Source of the DNA: Planctomycetota bacterium
GTDB taxonomy: Bacteria; Planctomycetota; Planctomycetia; Pirellulales; Lacipirellulaceae
DNA length: 11,281 bases
Assembly: GCA_039190745.1 (NCBI GenBank)
Contig: JBCCXZ010000093.1
Location: 1-11,281 of the forward strand
Direction of reading: 5' to 3'
Part shown: one piece after another, positions 1-11,281 of the stretch
How the letters are laid out: every line of letters starts with the position of its first letter
Position numbering within the stretch: the stretch's first letter is position 1
The notes under the pieces: model-generated
What the model was told of the DNA's origin: nothing
The model's input: only the letters and a program-made list of their open reading frames with translations
Database searches by the model: none
Made by a program: the position numbers and the translations under genes

Positions 1-1472
1 GAACCGTTGGAGCTGTTGTTGCTGATGGTACTAGAGAAGACCCCAATTCCCTTGGGGGCCGAAAGCCCTCCCCCGTTGGAGGCAGTTCCGTGCGTGCTAT
101 TGCCGTCAACCTCACTCTTGTGCAGTTCCACAAGCGACATCGAGGAAACCCCGCCGCCTGCGGACTCCCTGCCATGCGTGCTATTGCCGAGAACCCGACT
201 CTCCCTAATGACAACGGCGCCGTCCAAAGGCCCAGGAGGCAATACCCTGTTGATTCCTCCGCCTCGCGACGCTTCTCCAGTCGTGCTGTTCCCGCTGACG
301 GTCGAGCGCATAACCGAGACCGCGCCGTTAGCCTGGAAGCCTCCGCCTCCCGAGGCGTCCCCGTGCGTGCTGTTTCCTGAGACAATGCTCTCGTGCAAAG
401 TAACGCTGCCAGAAACTCCAAAGTTGCCGACCACGAATCCACCTCCCTCAGACGAGTCCCCCTTGGTCTGGTTCCCCTCAACGGCGGTGCGTACGAGAGA
501 AGCGGATACCGATGCGAACCCCCCGCCCCCCGAGCGCCACCCGTCAGTTGAGTTGCCTCCGACCAGGCTGTCGGTCAAGGTCGTGTCCCCGCTATAGAAG
601 CCTCCGCCCCCCGCGTTATCGCCCGTCGTGTGATTCTGGCTGATAGTGCTACCCACAATAGTTGTGTTGGCACTAATAAAACCGCCGCCGTCCGAAAGGT
701 TTCCGTCAGTCGTGTTTCCCGACACCGTGGTCCCGGACATCACCAAGTCTCGCACGTGGAACCCGCCTCCATCCGCACCACCGCCCAGAGTCGCGTTGCC
801 AGTGATCGTGCTGTCACTGATCGTCGCTGACCAGGCCCAGAAACCTCCTCCTAAAGCCCCAGACCCCGTCGTGTGGTTCCCCGAGATCACCGAGCTGCTG
901 ATGGTTATCTCTCCCGACGAATACACCCCTCCTCCATATGCGGAAGAACCAGACGTTGAGCTGTCGCTAATCCGAATATCAGAGAGGCTCAGAGAACTCA
1001 CGAAAGCGAAAACAGCTCCGCCCCTTCCTTCTTGCCCAGGGGCGGTCGTGGCGCCGTTGGCTAGAGTCAGGCCTGATAAAGCAACCGCCTGCTCGTGGTC
1101 GGGATCAAATGGGATGTCTATGCGGAAGAGCCGTGAATCGTGCTGGCCATCAATGGTCAAGAGGTCCATCCCAGGTCCAACGATACTTAATGCCTCGGTA
1201 ATCGGAAGCTCGCCATCGGTTAGTGCGATGGTCGAAGGCCCTTCGTTGCCAAGCTCGAAGACGATCTCGTCGACGCCTGGAACTGTGTTGGCTGCAAAGA
1301 TCGCTTCCCGAAGAGACGTAAGGCCATCATTTAAATCGACCACGTCCAACTCGGTGTCGATCACAATCGCCAGCACCCGTCGCTCTTCCAACGGATCAAA
1401 ACGCAGCCGACGCAAACGGGCTTCCGCCTGCTTCAGAAACGGGTCGCGACGCCACGGTCTCAGCAGACTCAT
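1..1472 (-). CDS. Large secreted planctomycete surface protein (Planc_extracel/LEPR-XLL-like leader, CSLREA motif, right-handed beta-helix GGG repeats); 3' end lies outside the window
   Basis: Manual translation from ATG 1472 is open to the window edge (490 codons): MSLLRPWRRDPFLKQAEARLRRLRFDPLEERRVLAIVIDTELDVVDLNDGLTSLREAIFAANTVPGVDEIVF... It continues with about 12 repeats of the type S.(I/V)SGN.T.G..(S/A).GGG(F/V/I). A GGGGG RBS-like run lies upstream. The ORF track probably omits it because there is no stop codon in the window. Confidence 0.9.
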   Translation of the reverse strand, partial: MSLLRPWRRDPFLKQAEARLRRLRFDPLEERRVLAIVIDTELDVVDLNDGLTSLREAIFAANTVPGVDEIVFELGNEGPSTIALTDGELPITEALSIVGPGMDLLTIDGQHDSRLFRIDIPFDPDHEQAVALSGLTLANGATTAPGQEGRGGAVFAFVSSLSLSDIRISDSSTSGSSAYGGGVYSSGEITISSSVISGNHTTGSGALGGGFWAWSATISDSTITGNATLGGGADGGGFHVRDLVMSGTTVSGNTTDGNLSDGGGFISANTTIVGSTISQNHTTGDNAGGGGFYSGDTTLTDSLVGGNSTDGWRSGGGGFASVSASLVRTAVEGNQTKGDSSEGGGFVVGNFGVSGSVTLHESIVSGNSTHGDASGGGGFQANGAVSVMRSTVSGNSTTGEASRGGGINRVLPPGPLDGAVVIRESRVLGNSTHGRESAGGGVSSMSLVELHKSEVDGNSTHGTASNGGGLSAPKGIGVFSSTISNNSSNG

Positions 1473-1887: not shown

Positions 1888-1924
1888 AAAGACAAAACAG
1901 GCCCGCCGACTTCAGTCGGCGGGC
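1888..1924 (-). terminator. Intrinsic terminator after the HTTM gene (possibly also a REP-like palindrome)
   Basis: Perfect 10-bp stem GCCCGCCGAC-ttca-GTCGGCGGGC (1901-1924), 12 nt after the stop at 1937, followed on the minus strand by CTGTTTTGTCTTT. Confidence 0.75.
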
Positions 1925-1936
1925 GCTCAGGATTCC

Positions 1937-2923
1937 TCAGGTAAACACCCGAGCAATCCGAGCGGCTAACGGATCGCAATACTTCCGCACCGCCTGAGGC
2001 GAGACGAACGAGAGGTTCGCGTAGATCATCGCCAAGCCGAACGTAATCATCCCCATGCACAACGCGATCCCGCCGTGCACCCCGAACGCGATCAACAGCA
2101 CCACCGGCCTGCAGTGCCGGTTCCAAACCAGGCAGCAGTAGAACAGCTCCCAGAACACCGTCACGTGCGTCATGACCGCCACCAGCACCGGCCAGCCCGC
2201 CATCCACGTCATGTCCAGCGACTGGTACTCCAGGTTCGCCACCGCCCACCACACCGCCGTGCCCGCTTGCCAGTTCTCGCCTTCCAGCTTCGCAATACCC
2301 GAGAACAAGTACACCACGCACAAGTGCAACTGCATCAGCCGGATTGCCACGTTCGCCGAGACGCTCGCCGGCGGGTCGTCGGTGTGCCCCTTGCGCATCC
2401 GCCGCAGCCGGTCGACCGAGTACCTAGCCCCGCACGGCCCCAGCATCAAGTACATCACCAGCAGGCAGTTGGTTTTATCCAACCCAAAGAACGCCCCCGG
2501 CGTCACCCGCTGGGCGTAGGAAATCGCGAGCAGGTAACCCAAGAAAGCCGCCGTGCGGGTAAAGAACCCCAGCATCAAGCAGGTAAACACCAACAATGCA
2601 AGCACATGGACCGACCACAGCTGCCAAGGCTGATCGATCCAGAAAAACACACTCCACGTCGACCACACCGGTTCGAGCGTGCCGTCTTCCAGCCGCGAGA
2701 CGTGAACCGTGTTCCGTAGAAACTCCACCGGCCACCAACCCTCCGGGCCCAGGAAGGCCCACAGGTCGAGCGACCACACCGCGTGCGTATAAAGCAGCAG
2801 CGAGCCGGCCAGCAGCCGGATGAGCGACAGCGTCGCCGGGTCGGCCGGCGTAAACCAGAACCGGTTCCAGGCGTCCCACACCTCGGCGATGTAACCCCGC
2901 GTGCCGCGGGCGGCAGAGATCAT
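1937..2923 (-). CDS. HTTM-domain polytopic membrane protein (SdpB / linaridin LinG / vitamin K-dependent carboxylase N-terminal-like), 328 aa
   Basis: Motifs WNRFWFTP..P..L...R, RLMQLHLCVVYLFSGIAKL.G.NW..GTA, THVTVFWEL and VHGGIALCMGMITFGLAM, with many TM helices. The true start is probably ATG 2923, which overlaps the upstream TGA (ATGA). The listed extension to 3397 lies out of frame within the upstream gene. Confidence 0.88.
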   Translation of the reverse strand: MISAARGTRGYIAEVWDAWNRFWFTPADPATLSLIRLLAGSLLLYTHAVWSLDLWAFLGPEGWWPVEFLRNTVHVSRLEDGTLEPVWSTWSVFFWIDQPWQLWSVHVLALLVFTCLMLGFFTRTAAFLGYLLAISYAQRVTPGAFFGLDKTNCLLVMYLMLGPCGARYSVDRLRRMRKGHTDDPPASVSANVAIRLMQLHLCVVYLFSGIAKLEGENWQAGTAVWWAVANLEYQSLDMTWMAGWPVLVAVMTHVTVFWELFYCCLVWNRHCRPVVLLIAFGVHGGIALCMGMITFGLAMIYANLSFVSPQAVRKYCDPLAARIARVFT

Positions 2924-3705
2924 CGCGGTGCCCCCTGCGGCTGGGTCGGCGGCAACTCGACCGGCGGCGTCTTCGCTACGCGAGGCTTCCCTTGCAGCGA
3001 AGCGAGCACGCGGTAAGTCGACCGGGCGTCTAGCGGCGTCTCTTCCAATACCCGATAAGGAGGCAGCAGCCCGTGAAAGACCAACTCCACCTCGCTCTCG
3101 CCGCCGTGGACCGTCGCCAGGTGGTCTGCGTAGTTCTGCCCCGAGCTCGGCCCGTGCCCGGCTGTTTGCTCCGAGAGCATCATGTGCCGGTGGTAGAACA
3201 GCCGCGGCCGGTGGGTCTTCCGATCGGGGAACGTCCCCTCCACCACCTGCCCGTCCGGACGCGTCACGCGGTACCGCATGATGTGCGTCCCCGCGGGGTC
3301 GGGGGCGAAGAACTCGTAGCCGTGGTTGATGAACACCAGGTTCTGGTAGTGCGTGAGCTTGGAAGACAGCCAGTCCACCACAATTGGTTTCTGCCACTCG
3401 CGGCTCGACTCCGGCGGCGGGGCGACCGGATTACCTTGGTCGTCGAACAACCGAAAGTTCGGCGGCAGCGCATCGGCAGTCATCAACGACCAAGGCGCGA
3501 CAAACACGGCGAGCATGTGGCCGGAAACCAGCAGGCTCACCAGCAGCCGCGTCCAGAGACTCCAACCGACGCCGCCGGCCGGCGCCGGCTTGGAGGGCTT
3601 CGCCTTCTCGGGCTTGGGCTTCTCCGGCTTCGCGGCGGGCTCAGCAGCACGCGGGGTCGCCTGCTGCGATTGCTTCGCCCCGAGTTCTTGCCGACGCCTT
3701 GCCAT
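2920..3705 (-). CDS. Single-pass membrane protein, SdpA/DUF5819 (LinL/CypL)-like, 261 aa
   Basis: Lys/Pro-rich N-terminal tail, one TM helix containing a His (LLVSLLVSGHMLAVFVAPW), and the motif NHGYEFFAPDP, which resembles the W/Y-x-(L/F)-F-A-P-x-P signature of SdpA/DUF5819-type proteins. It is coupled to an HTTM gene, as sdpA is to sdpB. Confidence 0.75.
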   Translation of the reverse strand: MARRRQELGAKQSQQATPRAAEPAAKPEKPKPEKAKPSKPAPAGGVGWSLWTRLLVSLLVSGHMLAVFVAPWSLMTADALPPNFRLFDDQGNPVAPPPESSREWQKPIVVDWLSSKLTHYQNLVFINHGYEFFAPDPAGTHIMRYRVTRPDGQVVEGTFPDRKTHRPRLFYHRHMMLSEQTAGHGPSSGQNYADHLATVHGGESEVELVFHGLLPPYRVLEETPLDARSTYRVLASLQGKPRVAKTPPVELPPTQPQGAPR

Positions 3706-3803
3706 CTGCTCTCTCGGATTCGGTCGGCCCCGGCTGTGTCGTCGTGCCCTGCCCAGTTCATAGGGAACTGGCGGCCCAGCCGCGTCAGTCTCGGTGCGAT
3801 AGC

Positions 3804-3846
3804 AAAAGAAAAACCCCCGCTCCGGTCAACACCGAAGCGGGGGTTT
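3804..3846 (-). terminator. Strong intrinsic terminator after the TIGR03000 gene
   Basis: The minus strand reads AAACCCCCGCTTCGGT-gttg-ACCGGAGCGGGGGTTT-TTCTTTT. This is a 16-bp stem whose single irregular pair is G-U only on the minus strand, followed by a U tract. Confidence 0.88.
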
Positions 3847-3885
3847 GGGGTACTGCTAGCGTTGCGGACTCAAGCCAGGAGACAG

Positions 3886-4875
3886 CTAGTTGGCCATCGC
3901 GACCTTGGTCGCCTCGTCCGAGAAATCGAACGCCAACTCACGCGAGTCGCCGCCAGAGATGGCGATCGTCTGCTCACGGACCAGCGTCTGGCCGTCCCGC
4001 TCGAGCTCGACGCGGACGGTGTAGTTGTCCCACTCGGCGCCTTCCGCAAGGCGGCTGGTCACAAAGGTCCGCTCCTCGCCGGTCTGCGAGGTCTCCGCCC
4101 CGGCCAGGAAGACCTTGGCCTCGGCGGGCACGTTCACCTTCAGCGAGGTCTGCGTAGCCTCGGGCTTCGCGGCGAGCTCGGCGTTGCCGAACTCCAGCGT
4201 CGCTTTCTGCCCCGCCTTCAGGTGGACCGTCTTGACCTCCGACTCGCCGTTGTAGCTCACTTCGAGCCGGTAGGCGTAGGTCAAGCCGCTCTTGAGACCG
4301 CGCGAAACAAAGCTCCGCTCGGCGCCTTCGCTCGTGGTGGCCTTGCCGTTTACCTTCACGCTGGCGTCGGCCGGCACCGTCACCTCAATCGAGGCCGAGT
4401 CGTCCGCGGCTTCGGGGACCGATTCCACTTCGTAGCCTTCGTGGATGTGGTCGCCGTGGCTGTGGCTCTCGTGGATGATCACGCCGCCGGTCGTGCCGTA
4501 GCTGCCCGAGGAGCCGTAGCTGCCGGACGAACCATACGATCCGTGGCTGGCACTGGAGCCGTGGCTGCCGTAGGAACCGTAGCTGGCGCTGGAACCGCTC
4601 GAGCCATAGCTAGCCTTCGCGGCGTGGCGAGCAGCCTTACGAGCGTGCCAACGGGCGAACAAGCCGCCGTGGCTGCCGCCCGACCCGTAGGAGCCGCCGG
4701 AGCCGTAAGAGCCGTAGCTGGCGCTGGAACCGCTCGACCCGTAGCTGCCGTAGCTAGCGCTCGAGCCCGAGGAGCCGTAGCTGCCGTGGGAAAAAGCCGA
4801 TGCGGTACCGGTTGCCAGGATCAACGCCGTGATCCCGAAAGCCGCACCCGCAGTACGATTCATGAAAGTGGCCAT
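3886..4875 (-). CDS. Secreted TIGR03000-domain protein with (S-x-G)n low-complexity N-terminus, 329 aa
   Basis: Sec-type signal peptide ending in ASA, two SxG repeat blocks, a His-rich patch, then two copies of the planctomycete TIGR03000 pattern (I.V.VPADA.V...G..T...G.ER.F....L..G..Y.Y). An alternative start is ATG 4863. Confidence 0.9.
   Translation of the reverse strand: MATFMNRTAGAAFGITALILATGTASAFSHGSYGSSGSSASYGSYGSSGSSASYGSYGSGGSYGSGGSHGGLFARWHARKAARHAAKASYGSSGSSASYGSYGSHGSSASHGSYGSSGSYGSSGSYGTTGGVIIHESHSHGDHIHEGYEVESVPEAADDSASIEVTVPADASVKVNGKATTSEGAERSFVSRGLKSGLTYAYRLEVSYNGESEVKTVHLKAGQKATLEFGNAELAAKPEATQTSLKVNVPAEAKVFLAGAETSQTGEERTFVTSRLAEGAEWDNYTVRVELERDGQTLVREQTIAISGGDSRELAFDFSDEATKVAMAN
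4495..4791 (-). repeat. Two blocks of 9-nt-period coding repeats (14 and 13 Ser-x-Gly/Ala triplets), including an exact 26-bp duplication
   Basis: Block 1 spans 4666-4791 and block 2 spans 4495-4611. The plus-strand sequence CCGTAGCTGGCGCTGGAACCGCTCGA occurs at both 4577-4602 and 4712-4737. Confidence 0.9.
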
Positions 4876-5124: not shown

Positions 5125-5616
5125 TCACGGGTTCTCGAGAACAACCAGCCGGACTTCGTCGATGTCGAGTGTTCCGGCGGCCCCCAGCAGGCCGACCCTT
5201 ACAATCGCTTCCCTCGTCGCCAGCGGCACGTCGATAGTCCTTTCCACCCTCTGCCAATCGAAGTCCCGGCCCCATGGTCCCAGGCGCTCGCTCTGGATCG
5301 CGGCCCGGCGCCGGTCGTAGAAGGTGATGACGACAGCCGGCCCGGAGTGGGAATCCGACGGGCGTGTGATCGTGACCCCACGCACCCGCGCGGAGAGTCG
5401 GATCTGATCGATCCGCCGGCCGTCCAACGCCATGCCTTGCAGAGCCCGCCCGGGGTCGTTGATCGTTCGCACCTGGAATCGCAAGAACGAACCGCCATCC
5501 GCCGATCGGTTGTCCTGCCGCTCAACCGCGGCGTTGCGGAGGTAATGCCAACCAACCGGCAAGGCGGTATCGGTCAACACACGCTCGAAGTCCCCGTTGA
5601 CGATGCTCGGGCTGGC
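5125..5616 (-). pseudogene. Out-of-frame C-terminal domain of the Pcm protein (carbohydrate-binding/jelly-roll-like)
   Basis: The frame reads [11 protein letters not shown]...PVGWHY...DWQRVERTIDVP...GTLDIDEVRL. The NGDFE...GW...W...D.V.L pattern is typical of CBM4/9-like beta-sandwiches. It has no convincing start of its own and joins pcm in frame if one C of the C5 run (5617-5621) is removed. Confidence 0.75.
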
Positions 5617-6358
5617 GGGGGTCCGGCAGCCGCTCACGCTTGTCCTCCGCAGCACCGGTCATGGGCACGAAGAGCGTCGCACGCAACGGAGTCTGCTCCA
5701 AGCGACCGTCCCGCTTCACGACGCGGAAGAGATTTTGTTGGTAACGCTCGCCTACCGGGATGATCATCTCACCCCCTTCGCGGAGCTGATCGACCAAAGC
5801 CTGCGGGATTCTCTCCGGCGAACAGGTGACAATGATCTTGTCGAAGGGTGCGTGCTCCGGCCAACCGAGGTACCCGTCCCCCGACTTCACGTGGACGTTC
5901 TTGTACCCTAGTCTACGGAGGGTCCGCTCGGATCGCTTTGCAAGCCGGTCGACGATCTCGATCGTGTAGACCTCAGCTACCAGCGGGCTGAGCACCGCAG
6001 CCTGATAGCCGCTGCCGGTGCCGATCTCCAGCACCTTCTCCTCCGGACCCGGCTGGAGTTGCTCCGTCATGTAGGCCACGACGAACGGCGGCGAGATGGT
6101 CTGACGATCGCCGATCGGCAACGCCGCGTCCAAGTAGGCGTACTGGCGTTGCCTCCCGGGGACAAACTCGTGCCTGGGCGTCGAGCGCATGGAAGCGAGC
6201 ACCCGTGGATCGGCGACTCCCGCGGCCTCGACTTCCTCGGCCACCAGCCGTTCTCGTTGCCGCTGGTATTCGTCTTGCGCAAAGGTAGTGGGCGGAAACC
6301 AAGCCAACGCCGTAAGCACGGCCAGCCAGTGTGTCGGGATTCGACAGAGGTGTTGCAT
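5522..6358 (-). CDS. pcm: Protein-L-isoaspartate(D-aspartate) O-methyltransferase with N-terminal signal-like peptide; frameshifted after the catalytic domain
   Basis: Motifs [72 protein letters not shown] and FVPMTG. The likely start is ATG 6358 ([29 protein letters not shown]). It is 278 aa as sequenced and 410 aa if the frameshift is repaired. Confidence 0.92.
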
Positions 6359-6499: not shown

Positions 6500-7675
6500 G
6501 TGCCGCAGCCACAAACCGCAGCCACCCGGCCAACGGTCCAAGACCTACGCGGCCAGATGCCGATCTGCGAGAAGTGGGCCTACCTAGATCACGCCGCGGT
6601 GGCTCCGATCTCTGGCCCTGCTTCCGAGGCGATCCGTCTGTGGAACCAGCAAGCAGCGCAGGAAGGCGTGGCCGCGTGGTCGGGTTGGATGGGCCAGCTA
6701 CGAGAAACCCGCCGCCTCGGCGCGCAGGTCACTGGTGCAAACGAGGACGAGATCACGCTGGTCAGCAGCACGACGGCGGGAATCAACCTCGTTGCCGAGG
6801 GCATCGATTGGCGTGAAGGCGACAATGTTGTCACACTCGCCGACGAGTTCCCTTCGAATCTTTACCCGTGGATGCAACTCGAACGCCTGGGCGTCGAGCT
6901 GAGGCGTGTGCCGACCGATCGGGGCGCTGTTGATTACCACGAACTCGCCTCGGCTTGCGACCGGCGGACCCGGGTGGTCACCGTCAGTTGGGTCGGCTAC
7001 TCGAACGGCGTTCGGCGGGACCTGACTCGCATTGGTGAAGTGGCACGCAAATACGACTCGTTTTTCTTTGTCGACGCGATCCAGGGGCTGGGCGTCTACC
7101 CGATTCATGTCGGAGAGCTTGGGATCGACGGCCTGGCAGCCGACGGGCACAAGTGGATGCTCGGACCGGAGGGGGCCGGAATCGCCTACATACGATCAGA
7201 GTGGCTCGACCGACTCCGCCCGCTTGGCGTCGGTTGGAACAGCGTCACCCACGCCGGCGACTACGCCAACCTCGAACTCAACCTCAAGCCCTCCGCGGCT
7301 CGTTACGAGGGCGGCTCGCACAACATGGTTGGCTTTGTTGCGCTTGGGGCCAGTTTGCGTCTGCTCAACGAAATTGGTACTCCTAGCCTGGAGCACAAGA
7401 TCCTGGAGAACGCGGGGTGTGTCCGTGCACTGCTGACTCAACACGGCGGGGTCGTGTACTCTCCTGAGGCAGGCGCCGAGGTATCAGGGATCGTTTCCTG
7501 CCGGTTTAGCGGCGTCGACCTTAAGAAGCTCAAGCGGCTTTGTTTGGAAGACGGGGTTGTGATTAACTTCCGCGACGGGCGTCTCCGCGTGAGCCCCCAC
7601 GCCTACACCGATGAGCGTGACTTTGAGAAGCTAGACGCATCACTCGCGACTGCGTTGCCGTTGGCGAGCGAGTAA
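6500..7675 (+). CDS. Class-V PLP-dependent enzyme (cysteine desulfurase/selenocysteine lyase superfamily; C-S lyase/CefD-like subgroup)
   Basis: Motifs YLDHAAVAP, STTAGIN, EFPSN..PW, VDAIQGLG, DGHKWMLGPEG (PLP lysine), RYEGGS and LRVSPHAY. The start is GTG 6500, with ATG 6557 as an alternative. Confidence 0.9.
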   Translation: MPQPQTAATRPTVQDLRGQMPICEKWAYLDHAAVAPISGPASEAIRLWNQQAAQEGVAAWSGWMGQLRETRRLGAQVTGANEDEITLVSSTTAGINLVAEGIDWREGDNVVTLADEFPSNLYPWMQLERLGVELRRVPTDRGAVDYHELASACDRRTRVVTVSWVGYSNGVRRDLTRIGEVARKYDSFFFVDAIQGLGVYPIHVGELGIDGLAADGHKWMLGPEGAGIAYIRSEWLDRLRPLGVGWNSVTHAGDYANLELNLKPSAARYEGGSHNMVGFVALGASLRLLNEIGTPSLEHKILENAGCVRALLTQHGGVVYSPEAGAEVSGIVSCRFSGVDLKKLKRLCLEDGVVINFRDGRLRVSPHAYTDERDFEKLDASLATALPLASE

Positions 7676-7737
7676 CAATCGGTCCTCATCCACTCAACCG
7701 GGCACGTTCGGAACTTACTCCTTGGGAGCGTTTAGAT

Positions 7738-8238
7738 ATGACCAGGCGGGCGGTTTACACGGGTTCGTTCGATCCAATCACCCTTGGCCACCTCAACGTG
7801 ATCGAGCGGAGCAGCCGGCTGGTGGATGAGTTGGTGGTCGGCGTCGGCATCAACATCGACAAGACCTCGTTGTTCACCGCCGACGAACGCGTCGGCCTTA
7901 TCAAGCGGGCGACCGGCCACCTCGACAACGTGCGTGTCGACCAGTTCTCTGGGCTGGCGGTGCGGTTTGTCCGGCACTGCGACGCGCGGGTCATCATCCG
8001 AGGCGTCCGATCGCTAACAGATATGGAGACCGAGTTCACGATGACGCTCGCGAATCGCAAGCTCGACCCCGGCCTCGAAACTGTTTTTCTGATGGCGGAC
8101 GATGAGTTTTCGCACGTGTCCAGTTCGTTGATCAAGCAGATTACGCCGCTTGCGGGGGACGAGGAACTCAGCCGGTTCGTCCCCGAGACGATCATCTCGG
8201 AACTGCGGGAGCGGATCGGAGCGGCAGGGGATTCGTAG
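7738..8238 (+). CDS. coaD: Phosphopantetheine adenylyltransferase
   Basis: AVYTGSFDPITLGHLNVIER (T/HxGH motif), IIRGVR...D.E.E..M...NRKL, ETVFL and VSSSLIKQI; 166 aa; GGGAG RBS upstream. Confidence 0.97.
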   Translation: MTRRAVYTGSFDPITLGHLNVIERSSRLVDELVVGVGINIDKTSLFTADERVGLIKRATGHLDNVRVDQFSGLAVRFVRHCDARVIIRGVRSLTDMETEFTMTLANRKLDPGLETVFLMADDEFSHVSSSLIKQITPLAGDEELSRFVPETIISELRERIGAAGDS

Positions 8239-8246
8239 CAAGGCGA

Positions 8247-9332
8247 TCAGCGTGCAGCTTTGAGCACCTGGAAGACGAGCGAAACGAGCCCCACGACCGC
8301 GAGGCCGGACTTGATTTGTTCGAACAGGTTGTTGGAGTTCGCTGGCTTGCCGGCGGCTGCATTCGTCGACGCGTTTCTGTTCGCGGATTGCGTTTCGGTG
8401 TTTGCCGAACCCCACAGTGACGCGACTTCTTGGGAAGGCGCAGCAAACAAGTCATCGCCAGTTGGTTGCTCGTCCAATCGGTCCGTCCTGTCTGCGAACT
8501 GCCTTCCGTCGCGCCCGCGGTTCGAAGACGGCGCCAATGCTGCTGAAAGGCCGCTCTCGGCCGCGGCGTGCCGAGGCGTCGCATCAGCGAGCAATGCATC
8601 ATCGGTTGCCCGGCCTATCCCAGGCGCGATGGAGGCAAGGAAATTCTCGACCCGACCGCCGAAGCTCCCCAGGGTGGTCCCCTGCCCCGCCCCGAACAAG
8701 ACGCCGGCGAGTTCGCCGCGGCTGTTGAAGATGGGCCCGCCGGAGTCGCCCTGGCGAGCCTCGACATCGAGCTCGACCATCTGCTGCGGAAGATCGATCC
8801 GCGGCGAGTAGTATTGCGTGCACTGGCCCGTTACGGATCGGTACACACCGGGGCCGTAGCCGCAGATTGTGAGACGGTCTCCGGGTTCAGGCGGTTGCGG
8901 CGAGATCGCGACCGGCTGCACGTCGGGGCGCCAAGTGACCAGTGCGGCCAGATCCCAGTCTTCGTCCACCTTGACCGGTCTGGCCTTCGATCGGAACCCG
9001 TCCGGGAAGAGCACCTCGACCGGCCCCTGCGCGTCGCGGACGACGTGCCAGTTGGTCACTACTAAACCGAACTGTTCCCTGGTGTCGACGAGGGTTCCGC
9101 TGCCGAACGACGTGGCCTCGCCCTCCGGGACCACGACGCGAACCACCGCGGGGTGCGGCCGATTGACGTGTGCAGAGGCGGCAGGTTTTCCGAACTGTTG
9201 GCGCCAGACAGAAGAAAGGTTCTGCAGCTGCGTCTGCCCTGCGCACGGAACCGGCGCCAACGCAAGCGCCATCAGTATGGCGGATATCCGGGGTTCGATC
9301 GCAGCCAAATGCAAGGTGCAGGCGTGAGTCAT
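8247..9332 (-). CDS. Secreted trypsin-like (S1) serine protease with C-terminal hydrophobic anchor, 361 aa
   Basis: Catalytic triad motifs VVTNWHVV (His), WDLAAL (Asp) and RQGDSGGPIF (Ser). It has an N-terminal hydrophobic signal (ISAILMALALAPVPCAG), a low-complexity linker and a C-terminal GLAVVGLVSLVFQVLKAAR. Confidence 0.9.
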   Translation of the reverse strand: MTHACTLHLAAIEPRISAILMALALAPVPCAGQTQLQNLSSVWRQQFGKPAASAHVNRPHPAVVRVVVPEGEATSFGSGTLVDTREQFGLVVTNWHVVRDAQGPVEVLFPDGFRSKARPVKVDEDWDLAALVTWRPDVQPVAISPQPPEPGDRLTICGYGPGVYRSVTGQCTQYYSPRIDLPQQMVELDVEARQGDSGGPIFNSRGELAGVLFGAGQGTTLGSFGGRVENFLASIAPGIGRATDDALLADATPRHAAAESGLSAALAPSSNRGRDGRQFADRTDRLDEQPTGDDLFAAPSQEVASLWGSANTETQSANRNASTNAAAGKPANSNNLFEQIKSGLAVVGLVSLVFQVLKAAR

Positions 9333-9982: not shown

Positions 9983-11281
9983 CTATTGCCGCTGCTCAGC
10001 AATCACGAGGGCGTCGACGAGCCCAGCGGTTGTGTACTCAGCCGCGATTGCTTCTGGGGCCAGCCCTAGGTCGTCCAGAACGCCGGCCGTCAACGGGCTG
10101 ATCGCGGCAAGCCGGGTGTTCCGGAGTGCGTCGCCGTACAGGCGGGCAACCGAGCGAGCGATAGCGGAGCTTGTCACGGTCACCCAGTCGATGGCTCCTC
10201 GTTCGAGCTCATCGCGGACAGAGTCGTCTGCACGGTTCACGTCGACGCTCTGATAAACGATCACTTGTTCGACAACGCCGCCGGCTGACCGCAGTTGCTC
10301 GGCCAGCACTTCCCGTCCCCGGCTGGCCCGCAGCAGCAGGAAGCGTTTGTTCTCAGCCCCGATCTGTAGCTTCTCGGCGAGCGCCTCAGCGCGGTACTCA
10401 GCGGGGGTCAGGTCAGCACGCAATCCACGGCGGCCCAACTCCTCTTCGGTCGCAGGCCCGATCGCCGCCAGCTTAACCCCGCCGAGAACACGCAGGTCGA
10501 GACCGAGTGTATTAACCCGATCCAAGAAGTAGGAGACTCCATTCGAGCTAGAAAAAACGAGCCAATCGAAGTCCGGCAGCCGGCCGATCGCGTCGTCCAC
10601 CGGCCTCCAATCGGCAGGCGGCTCGATCTCGATCGCGGCATGCTGCACCACGCGGGCGCCCAACCGTTGAAGCCTGGAAGCCAGGCTGCGGGCTTGCGGC
10701 TCGGGTCGCGTTACCAACACGGTCTTGCCAAACAGTGGCCGTTCCGCAAACCAGTTCCGAGTAGTCCTGGAGCGGATTGCCTGCCCGATCAGCACGACGG
10801 CCGGCGGGCGGAGGGCACCCGGGGCCAACACCGTAGCCAACTTGCCGACGGTGGTCTCGATCTCAAGCTGATCGGGCAACGAAGCCCGGCGAACGACGGC
10901 CGCAGGCGTTTCGGGCGGCATGCCGTTCCGGATGAGCTCATTGGACCACTCGGGCGCTGTTGTGACACCCATGTAGAACACCAGCGTGCCGGGGAAACGT
11001 GCGAGCGCCTCGAAGTCGAGCGCCTTAGGCCCTTTCGTTCGGCATTCGTGGCCGGTCACAAACGCAACAGAGGACGCCAGCTCGCGGTGCGTCAGCGGGA
11101 TGCCGGTACAAGCAGAGGCCGCCGAAGCCGCCGTGACTCCCGGGACCACTTCGAAAGGGATCGCTGCGGCTTCGAGCACCGCAAGTTCCTCGGCCGCCCG
11201 GCCGAACACCGAGCCGTCGCCTCCTTTGAGGCGCGCGACCCGTTTCCCCGCGAGCGCAGCCTCGACGACGATCGCGTTCAC
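9983..11281 (-). CDS. cobA: Bifunctional uroporphyrinogen-III C-methyltransferase / uroporphyrinogen-III synthase (CobA-HemD), 5' end outside the window
   Basis: The CobA part has VARLKGGD..VFGR..EE, FEVVPGVTA, GIPLTHR..ASSVAFVTGHE and TLVFYMG. The HemD part has RPLFGKTVLVTRP, WLVFSSSNGV, LAAIGPAT, VIVYQS and VTVTSS. The frame is open to the window edge. Confidence 0.95.
   Translation of the reverse strand: MNAIVVEAALAGKRVARLKGGDGSVFGRAAEELAVLEAAAIPFEVVPGVTAASAASACTGIPLTHRELASSVAFVTGHECRTKGPKALDFEALARFPGTLVFYMGVTTAPEWSNELIRNGMPPETPAAVVRRASLPDQLEIETTVGKLATVLAPGALRPPAVVLIGQAIRSRTTRNWFAERPLFGKTVLVTRPEPQARSLASRLQRLGARVVQHAAIEIEPPADWRPVDDAIGRLPDFDWLVFSSSNGVSYFLDRVNTLGLDLRVLGGVKLAAIGPATEEELGRRGLRADLTPAEYRAEALAEKLQIGAENKRFLLLRASRGREVLAEQLRSAGGVVEQVIVYQSVDVNRADDSVRDELERGAIDWVTVTSSAIARSVARLYGDALRNTRLAAISPLTAGVLDDLGLAPEAIAAEYTTAGLVDALVIAEQRQ

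Follow-up and report, generated by a model that had tools for sequence, protein, structure and literature searches.

A conserved planctomycete gene trio appears to couple a predicted exported serine/glycine-repeat protein to a putative VKGC-like membrane pair

The stretch of DNA analyzed here (the window, 11,281 nucleotides, contig JBCCXZ010000093.1 of assembly GCA_039190745.1), from a planctomycete of the Lacipirellulaceae (Pirellulales), carries three consecutive genes on the minus strand, A, B, and C (Table 1). They code for a predicted exported protein that combines a Ser/Gly repeat with a pair of TIGR03000 domains, a protein with a single transmembrane (TM) helix, and an HTTM-type membrane protein, respectively. 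This trio is a conserved system, more than a chance adjacency, and we are confident that the Ser repeat of A is coupled to the B-C pair. From the sequence evidence, we propose (probability of roughly 0.55) that A is the dedicated substrate of B and C, which would act jointly as an enzyme that removes alpha protons, similar to the vitamin K-dependent gamma-carboxylases (VKGC), and would most likely give D-residues.

An earlier inspection of the letters of the window (the sequence-only reading) had described three co-oriented genes, an exported protein with 27 S-x-G/A triplets followed by a terminator, and an ATGA-coupled pair, including a single-TM protein with the motif YEFFAPDP, closed by its own terminator. 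All these features were found. The triplets are exactly 27, within residues 1 to 130; the stop of B overlaps the start of C (ATGA, 2920-2923); gene B contains the motif and has its sole hydrophobic segment at residues 54 to 72; and no other hairpin among the 15 detected is as long as those behind A and behind the pair (mean of 9.1 in shuffles). Protein A runs from a hydrophobic N-terminus through the repeat and an acidic linker, with several Glu, to the two TIGR03000 domains. The repeat, devoid of both Glu and Asp, is made up of two blocks separated by a basic Gly-Leu-Phe spacer, and its Ser residues are encoded by both codon boxes (19 TCN and 17 AGY), which suggests selection on the protein and not DNA slippage alone. 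It starts right behind the signal peptide, as in most of 50 orthologs, and thus gene A has no leader of the type found in peptides that are made on ribosomes and modified after translation (RiPPs). Over 112 loci, Ser accounts for 30% of the repeats, Gly for 29%, Tyr for 10%, Thr for 1.8%, and Glu for 0.5%, and 47 of the 112 matched the Gly-Leu-Phe/basic spacer. The three genes are each single copy in the host genome, in which a six-frame scan recovered gene A as the only open reading frame (ORF) dense in Ser/Cys triplets.

Table 1. Features of the A-B-C locus (window coordinates)
Feature	Position	Strand	Remarks
Gene A (329 aa), protein with Ser/Gly repeat and two TIGR03000 domains, predicted to be exported	3886..4875	-	Likely substrate
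Predicted signal peptide of gene A, residues 1-27, ending A-S-A	4795..4875	-	Hydropathy and A-x-A motif
Ser/Gly repeat of gene A, residues 28-130	4486..4794	-	27 S-x-G/A triplets, two blocks
TIGR03000 domain 1 of gene A	4189..4398	-	69.6 bits, cut-off 43.1
TIGR03000 domain 2 of gene A	3928..4152	-	72.9 bits
Intrinsic-terminator-like hairpin between A and B	3811..3846	-	16 pairs
Gene B, single-TM protein, 261 aa, putative remote DUF5819 homologue	2920..3705	-	
Gene C, HTTM/VKGC-like membrane protein, 328 aa	1937..2923	-	
Codon of gene C Lys212	2288-2290	-	Aligned to GGCX Lys218
Codon of gene C His283	2075-2077	-	Aligned to GGCX His287
Terminator-like hairpin closing the B-C pair	1901..1924	-	10 pairs

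Among 40 relatives of the same order (host excluded), C was matched in 37, TIGR03000 in 38, and B in 37. Loci were fetched from 37 of them (G010, G011, and G030 were left out), and the trio was adjacent and co-oriented in 34, so the adjacency noticed in the window is conserved in related genomes. As for the other three, precursor and pair were on separate contigs in G021 and G035, and G024 had no B or C match. Recruitment with a B profile, which brought up at least 590 genome loci, gave a similar picture: in the best 80 of them, C was downstream in all 76 with enough DNA on that side and a TIGR03000-type gene was upstream in 69 of the 73 that extend far enough there, two of the remaining four having an SSG-repeat ORF instead. 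It should be noted that the counts of relatives and of B-profile loci overlap and come from kin, and hence are not independent. The order of precursor, terminator, and enzymes pointed out by the sequence-only reading is conserved too, with a strong hairpin and T-run behind A in 44 of 48 trio loci (counted without a shuffle control), and the stop of B overlaps the start of C in 37 of the 48. In a sample of 100 genomes of the class, B matched 75 and TIGR03000 57, and across 120 genomes of the phylum (113 outside the class) both matched the same single genome, side by side. Within family f18, B was found in 6 of 23 genomes and TIGR03000 in 5, all of them within those six; in family f85, 6 of 24 genomes had a strong B match (E below 1e-46), including its five TIGR03000-positive genomes. 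Hence, all 10 TIGR03000-positive genomes of these two families carry a strong B match, and the loci fetched from them have the same gene order and SSG repeats.

Presence of the enzymes goes with the repeat rather than with the TIGR03000 domain. TIGR03000 without any B or C match was found in family f80 (four genomes, 99% complete) and in G024 (89% complete). Four A orthologs from these genomes that could be fully read have 0 to 2 S-x-G triplets and 10 to 13 Cys, and the fifth (G227) has no repeat in the part of the sequence examined. The proteins from genomes that carry B and C have 7 to 36 triplets (median, 21) in 51 of 52 cases, the exception (L047) being a frameshifted gene with 29 triplets in the other frame. 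The repeat-free genes adjoin the same PIMT gene as the repeat-bearing ones, which identifies them as positional orthologs. This co-loss of repeat and enzymes supports the Ser repeat as the likely substrate of the pair, as the sequence-only reading had supposed. A repeat-only profile run against whole genomes was insensitive (3 hits in 101, missing the host gene itself), so co-loss applies to the A orthologs and not to repeats genome-wide. The converse situation is provided by G243 and a second copy in G213 (loci L167 and L168), where B-C lies behind short peptides, of about 45 to 60 residues, made up of a signal peptide and a repeat without TIGR03000; their mature part has no Glu. These domain-free partners contradict the former suggestion that TIGR03000 is a recognition or carrier module, and the domain also persists without the enzymes. 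On a side note, the repeat-free orthologs (L072 and L153-L155) have in common an N-terminus rich in Cys, Tyr, and Trp, in which a G-P-I/V/L-x-x motif resembles the spacer G-P-x-x-x-L of several Ser-type proteins. Anaerobiosis was considered as the cause of enzyme loss and discarded, as all five B/C-negative genomes carry COX1.

It could be argued that the adjacency is only inherited gene order without a functional link, or that the repeat is a His-Xaa-Ser precursor for radical-SAM enzymes encoded elsewhere. PIMT is a case in point for the former: in 30 of 48 trio loci it is found upstream of A with no evident functional link, and one genome (G190, see below) has a pair without a repeat gene. 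For the latter, A is a low-complexity Ser/His triplet protein like the His-Xaa-Ser precursors and matches HxsA4 (NF038313) weakly, at 42.7 bits. However, the trio recurs in other gene orders without PIMT, and the repeat is lost where the enzymes were not found while the neighborhood is retained. Moreover, the HxsA4 match is below the cut-off (55 bits), and TIGR03978 (paired radical-SAM protein 1, which we take to be HxsB) was over its cut-off in none of five trio-bearing genomes, so the His-Xaa-Ser system was rejected. Overall, we consider these explanations improbable. PIMT itself was also discarded as a member of the system; since it accompanies gene A even where B and C were not found, and is missing from the f18 and f85 trio loci, it is treated as synteny.

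The window gene C itself has no Pfam match, but 14 of 36 aligned orthologs match PF05090 (HTTM) at E<=0.01 (best, 7.7e-13). With the C profile, the only matches in the PDB were to human GGCX (the vitamin K-dependent gamma-glutamyl carboxylase, with a PF05090 core), along residues 115 to 331 (E 0.005). Lys212 of C aligns to GGCX Lys218 and His283 to His287 (numbering offset, 26), the latter presumably with a catalytic role in GGCX. These two residues are invariant in 75 of 75 aligned proteins examined, of which 57 belong to the Ser clade, 13 to the Cys clade, and 5 to the references linked to DUF5819. In GGCX, K218 is reported to be catalytic, with K218A losing most of the activity, and K217 to be structural (bioRxiv 10.1101/2025.02.09.637231). 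Unlike GGCX, C proteins have Gly, Ser, or Ala at the position of Lys217, the lumenal part of the human enzyme is unmatched, and the candidate substrate is nearly Glu-free. The structure model of C had a pLDDT of 90.7. The sequence-only reading had assigned the third gene to the HTTM proteins of the SdpB/LinG type: orthologs and GGCX alignment uphold the HTTM/VKGC-like part, but C stays far from the SdpB family TIGR04033 (43 bits, E 4e-11, cut-off 178.4). Regarding the cofactor, MqnC was over its cut-off in five of five genomes tested, including the host, and VKOR in three of five, with a homologue in the host. If the pair were a genuine gamma-glutamyl carboxylase whose target is Glu of the linker or of the TIGR03000 domains, this would be in line with the GGCX homology and catalytic Lys, with the MqnC and VKOR homologues, and with the Glu present in the linker of the window protein. 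Nevertheless, it seems to us highly improbable, given the Glu-free mature repeat-only precursors, the TIGR03000 domains that persist without the enzymes, and the limited extent of the GGCX match. Carboxylation of the repeats themselves, one of the modifications the sequence-only reading had envisaged, is unlikely because Glu makes up just 0.5% of the 112 repeat regions.

Gene B was more elusive. It had no Pfam or NCBIfam match, and neither was PF19136 (DUF5819) reached; its closest named record comes from a Lacipirellulaceae (Pirellulales) genome at 89% identity, and a search with its profile recovered 1913 cluster representatives with E values no higher than 0.001. Two motifs, G-Y-x-F-F-x-P and P-R-L-x-Y-H-R-x-x-M, are invariant. 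In the structure model (pLDDT, 80.7), a single TM helix is accompanied by an alpha/beta domain of small size, without a clear fold match among 48,161 chains (the best, at Z 5.9, is an unrelated chain, and GGCX is unlisted). A PDB sequence search with the B and DUF5819 profiles gave nothing significant, and the ESM Atlas returned unnamed clusters only. A profile-profile comparison was more informative. Against a profile of five DUF5819 proteins (annotated so in plasmid records; all three scanned pass PF19136), B aligned with a probability of 92% (E 6e-7) over 73 columns within its N-terminal third only, and the score was 51 versus a maximum of 16 across 40 shuffles. The SdpA family TIGR04034 had no match in the host at E<=1, with a positive B. 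subtilis control, and matched 1 of 37 B orthologs, at E 0.18. Judged by these profiles, B is a remote DUF5819 homologue and not a member of SdpA, so that, of SdpA and DUF5819, both named by the sequence-only reading, only the latter holds.

Weaker B matches revealed paralogous B-C pairs in families f85, f86, f87, and f90. A gene for a repeat with Cys instead of Ser is head-to-head with the paralogous pair in 12 of 15 fetched loci versus 1 of 48 trio loci, although the motif was picked after viewing the sequences. In f85 the repeat is built of C-Y-S/G units and in f86 of G-C-H/T-G units; in f87 it is a YTV-repeat protein. Several Cys versions have the Gly-Leu-Phe/basic spacer in common with the Ser versions. 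A quick tree built from 77 C proteins separates the Ser-linked from the Cys-linked enzymes, with two changes for three labels, and there are clade-specific C columns, e.g., H47, H106, Y136, and Y233 in the Ser clade. Some particularities of these sister loci are worth recording. The f87 protein (G165, L185:2525-4351) is a Cys-rich YTV-repeat protein in a 608-aa frame, head-to-head with the B-C pair; Cys-rich YTV proteins have been reported from planctomycete cell-wall preparations (PMC8567305). In f86 (L173-L179), the B-like genes are in frames of 407 to 507 aa, and in six of the seven loci an insertion of ~165 to 195 aa splits C after the first helices. The f85 Cys-repeat proteins (L180-L183, L186, and L187) have a lipobox-like L-S/N-G-L/V-G-C after a hydrophobic start and a Pro/Ala-rich tail.

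The locus fits neither of the two classes to which it was first compared, the linaridins and the Bacillus SDP system, as the sequence-only reading had already concluded. As in SDP, there is a membrane pair without hydrolase beside an exported partner with a signal peptide, and C does match TIGR04033; in contrast, B has no SdpA match, the partner consists of a Ser/Gly repeat that has no leader, together with TIGR03000 domains, and no SdpC-type family was matched by the 10 window proteins scanned against NCBIfam. Furthermore, SDP is sporadic while the present locus is single copy and near-universal in the sampled order. Linaridin clusters (LinL, LinE, and LinG with an HTTM domain, LinH being LinE+LinG) likewise combine an HTTM protein with a small partner, implicated in dehydration and D-amino-acid formation (bioRxiv 10.1101/2020.07.09.196543, PMC9927463, PMC10125368, PMC10373908). 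However, no LinE, LinM, or LinD was recognized among the conserved neighbors here; specifically, there was no LinE alpha/beta-hydrolase in the 10 window proteins scanned, nor was one recognized by eye among the recurrent neighbors of 48 loci. The substrate is also Thr-poor and Ser-rich and has no PxxxTP leader as defined for linaridins (PMC9927463). The DUF5819 (PF19136) and HTTM pairs of Bacillus and Actinomycetota have the same gene order and size and the same invariant Lys and His in their HTTM partners, but the alignment with B is partial, as described above, and the C proteins of planctomycetes group in a branch of their own, with full support. In three of three Kitasatospora/Streptomyces plasmid loci (L194, L195, and L196), the DUF5819 and HTTM pair is found behind a gene for an "ice-binding family protein," another candidate substrate class. 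Altogether, the locus is apparently an undescribed variant that would work like SdpAB or LinG/LinL. It differs from them in its type of substrate (an exported repeat that lacks a leader and occurs both with TIGR03000 and without it), in being single copy and nearly universal across the sampled order, and in its Ser- and Cys-linked sister clades. No description of such a locus was found in the literature searched (the subscription literature on CypH/CypL and the Mahajan 2020 envelope paper were not covered), nor any mention of TIGR03000, and neither TIGR03000 nor HTTM nor vitamin K occurs in two supplements of PMC8567305.

We propose the following mechanism. Protein A would be exported by its signal peptide and, owing to the internal terminator, made in excess over B and C, which would assemble in the membrane as suggested by their coupled stop and start. 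Lys212 of C, like Lys218 of GGCX, would help form a strong base, possibly with menaquinol, that deprotonates the C-alpha of Ser, or of the adjacent aromatic or His residue, in G-S-x-G units; the modified position could then be the Ser (or Cys) or the aromatic or His residue following it. Reprotonation would lead to D-residues, an outcome that, all steps considered, falls somewhat short of an even chance, and elimination to dehydroalanine (Dha) seems clearly less probable. With the repeat directly behind the signal peptide, a cytoplasmic leader could have no part in recognition, and the enzymes likely act after export. The product would probably belong to the envelope or the cell surface and not be an antibiotic that is released, with the TIGR03000 domains involved in its assembly or anchoring and not in recognition by the enzymes. 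Epimerization is favored because no LinE was recognized, Dha-rich linaridins are said to be without precedent, and SDP, whose maturation depends on SdpAB, is not known to show a mass change beyond a disulfide. A VKGC-type strong base at C-alpha would explain both linaridin outcomes, dehydration and D-residues. LinE, LinG, LinH, and LinL install dehydrobutyrine (bioRxiv 10.1101/2020.07.09.196543), D-residues are found in linaridins without a known epimerase (PMC10125368, PMC10373908), and GrmL has been suggested to be the epimerase (PMC10373908).

The same partnership might instead yield mainly Dha, from Ser or, in the paralogues, from Cys, which would then cross-link the exported protein into the envelope. 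Ser and Cys, which interchange at the same repeat position across the enzyme clades, are both substrates of beta-elimination. The machinery of linaridin biosynthesis acts on Thr by dehydration and possibly on Cys by dethiolation (PMC10125368). We nevertheless regard this product as unlikely, considering that no LinE-type hydrolase was recognized among the recurrent neighbors (clusters read by eye) and that Thr represents just 1.8% of the repeats. It is also conceivable that B and C act on the repeat in another way (oxidation, O-acylation, glycosylation, or proteolytic processing) or merely chaperone or anchor it. The genomic evidence speaks to coupling and not to chemistry, B has no recognized fold, and we know of no defined role for SdpAB in SDP maturation. 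On the other hand, the catalytic Lys of GGCX and the aligned His are invariant, and no transferase or donor-pathway gene was recognized among the recurrent neighbors; thus, other chemistry also appears rather unlikely, if slightly less so than Dha.

Several observations weigh against the alpha-proton-removing partnership that we favor. The co-loss amounts to at most two events (the four-genome family and G024, 89% complete) and was evaluated without an independent-pairs test. Precursor and pair are apart in G021 and G179. The Ser-clade B-C pair of G190 (L161) has no repeat gene nearby or by protein search, and a second B-C copy in G163 (L169) has none nearby. Support for the Ser-linked clade is only 49% in the quick tree, the GGCX match is weak and restricted to the membrane core, and VKOR was not found in the trio-bearing G242. 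From the literature, a Dha-rich linaridin has been called unprecedented (bioRxiv 10.1101/2020.07.09.196543), which weakens the dehydration branch, and epimerization by proteins of this kind is so far a suggestion (PMC10373908). As a separate observation, a divergent peptide-deformylase-like gene is located upstream of the pair at L161.

A broader and doubtful extension would be that Planctomycetia use clade-specific, menaquinone-dependent VKGC-like pairs as housekeeping machines that rewrite dozens of Ser (in this clade) or Cys (in the paralogous clades, one of them facing the YTV-repeat protein) in leaderless exported repeats, producing D-amino-acid-rich or cross-linked polymers within the unusual, proteinaceous envelope of planctomycetes. 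The locus itself connects a candidate post-translational modification with the Cys-rich proteins of planctomycete cell-wall preparations (PMC8567305). Reviews still describe the chemistry of HTTM/VKGC-like proteins from bacteria (SdpB, LinG) as unknown (PMC9927463, PMC10125368), and the locus is an unusually clean test case for it, with a single-copy pair, a substrate picked by co-loss, natural repeat-only peptides, and sister clades that have Cys for Ser and would allow specificity swaps. Related loci are present in cultured species of Lacipirellula, Bythopirellula, and Botrimarina. The locus also provides a first functional lead for TIGR03000 proteins.

As for the remaining genes of the window, the PIMT gene and the ORF at 5125-5655 are in different frames here (5125-6355, minus strand), due to a sequencing error or a pseudogene; in all 35 relatives that have a match to each, PIMT and this C-terminal domain form a single fused gene. 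The PIMT N-terminus resembles a signal peptide, which is unusual for PIMT. A class-V aminotransferase, CoaD, a trypsin-like protease, and a fused CobA/HemD gene occupy 6500-8238 (plus strand), 8247-9332 (minus), and 9983-11281 (minus); they are ordinary neighbors, the first three being kept in 15, 14, and 7 of 48 loci. At the other end (3-1472, minus strand), the contig breaks off within the gene of a large repeat protein rich in Gly, Ser, and Thr, which is probably exported and likely a beta-helix; it has a weak CSLREA match (E 0.094) and is conserved beside the trio in 0 of 48 loci.

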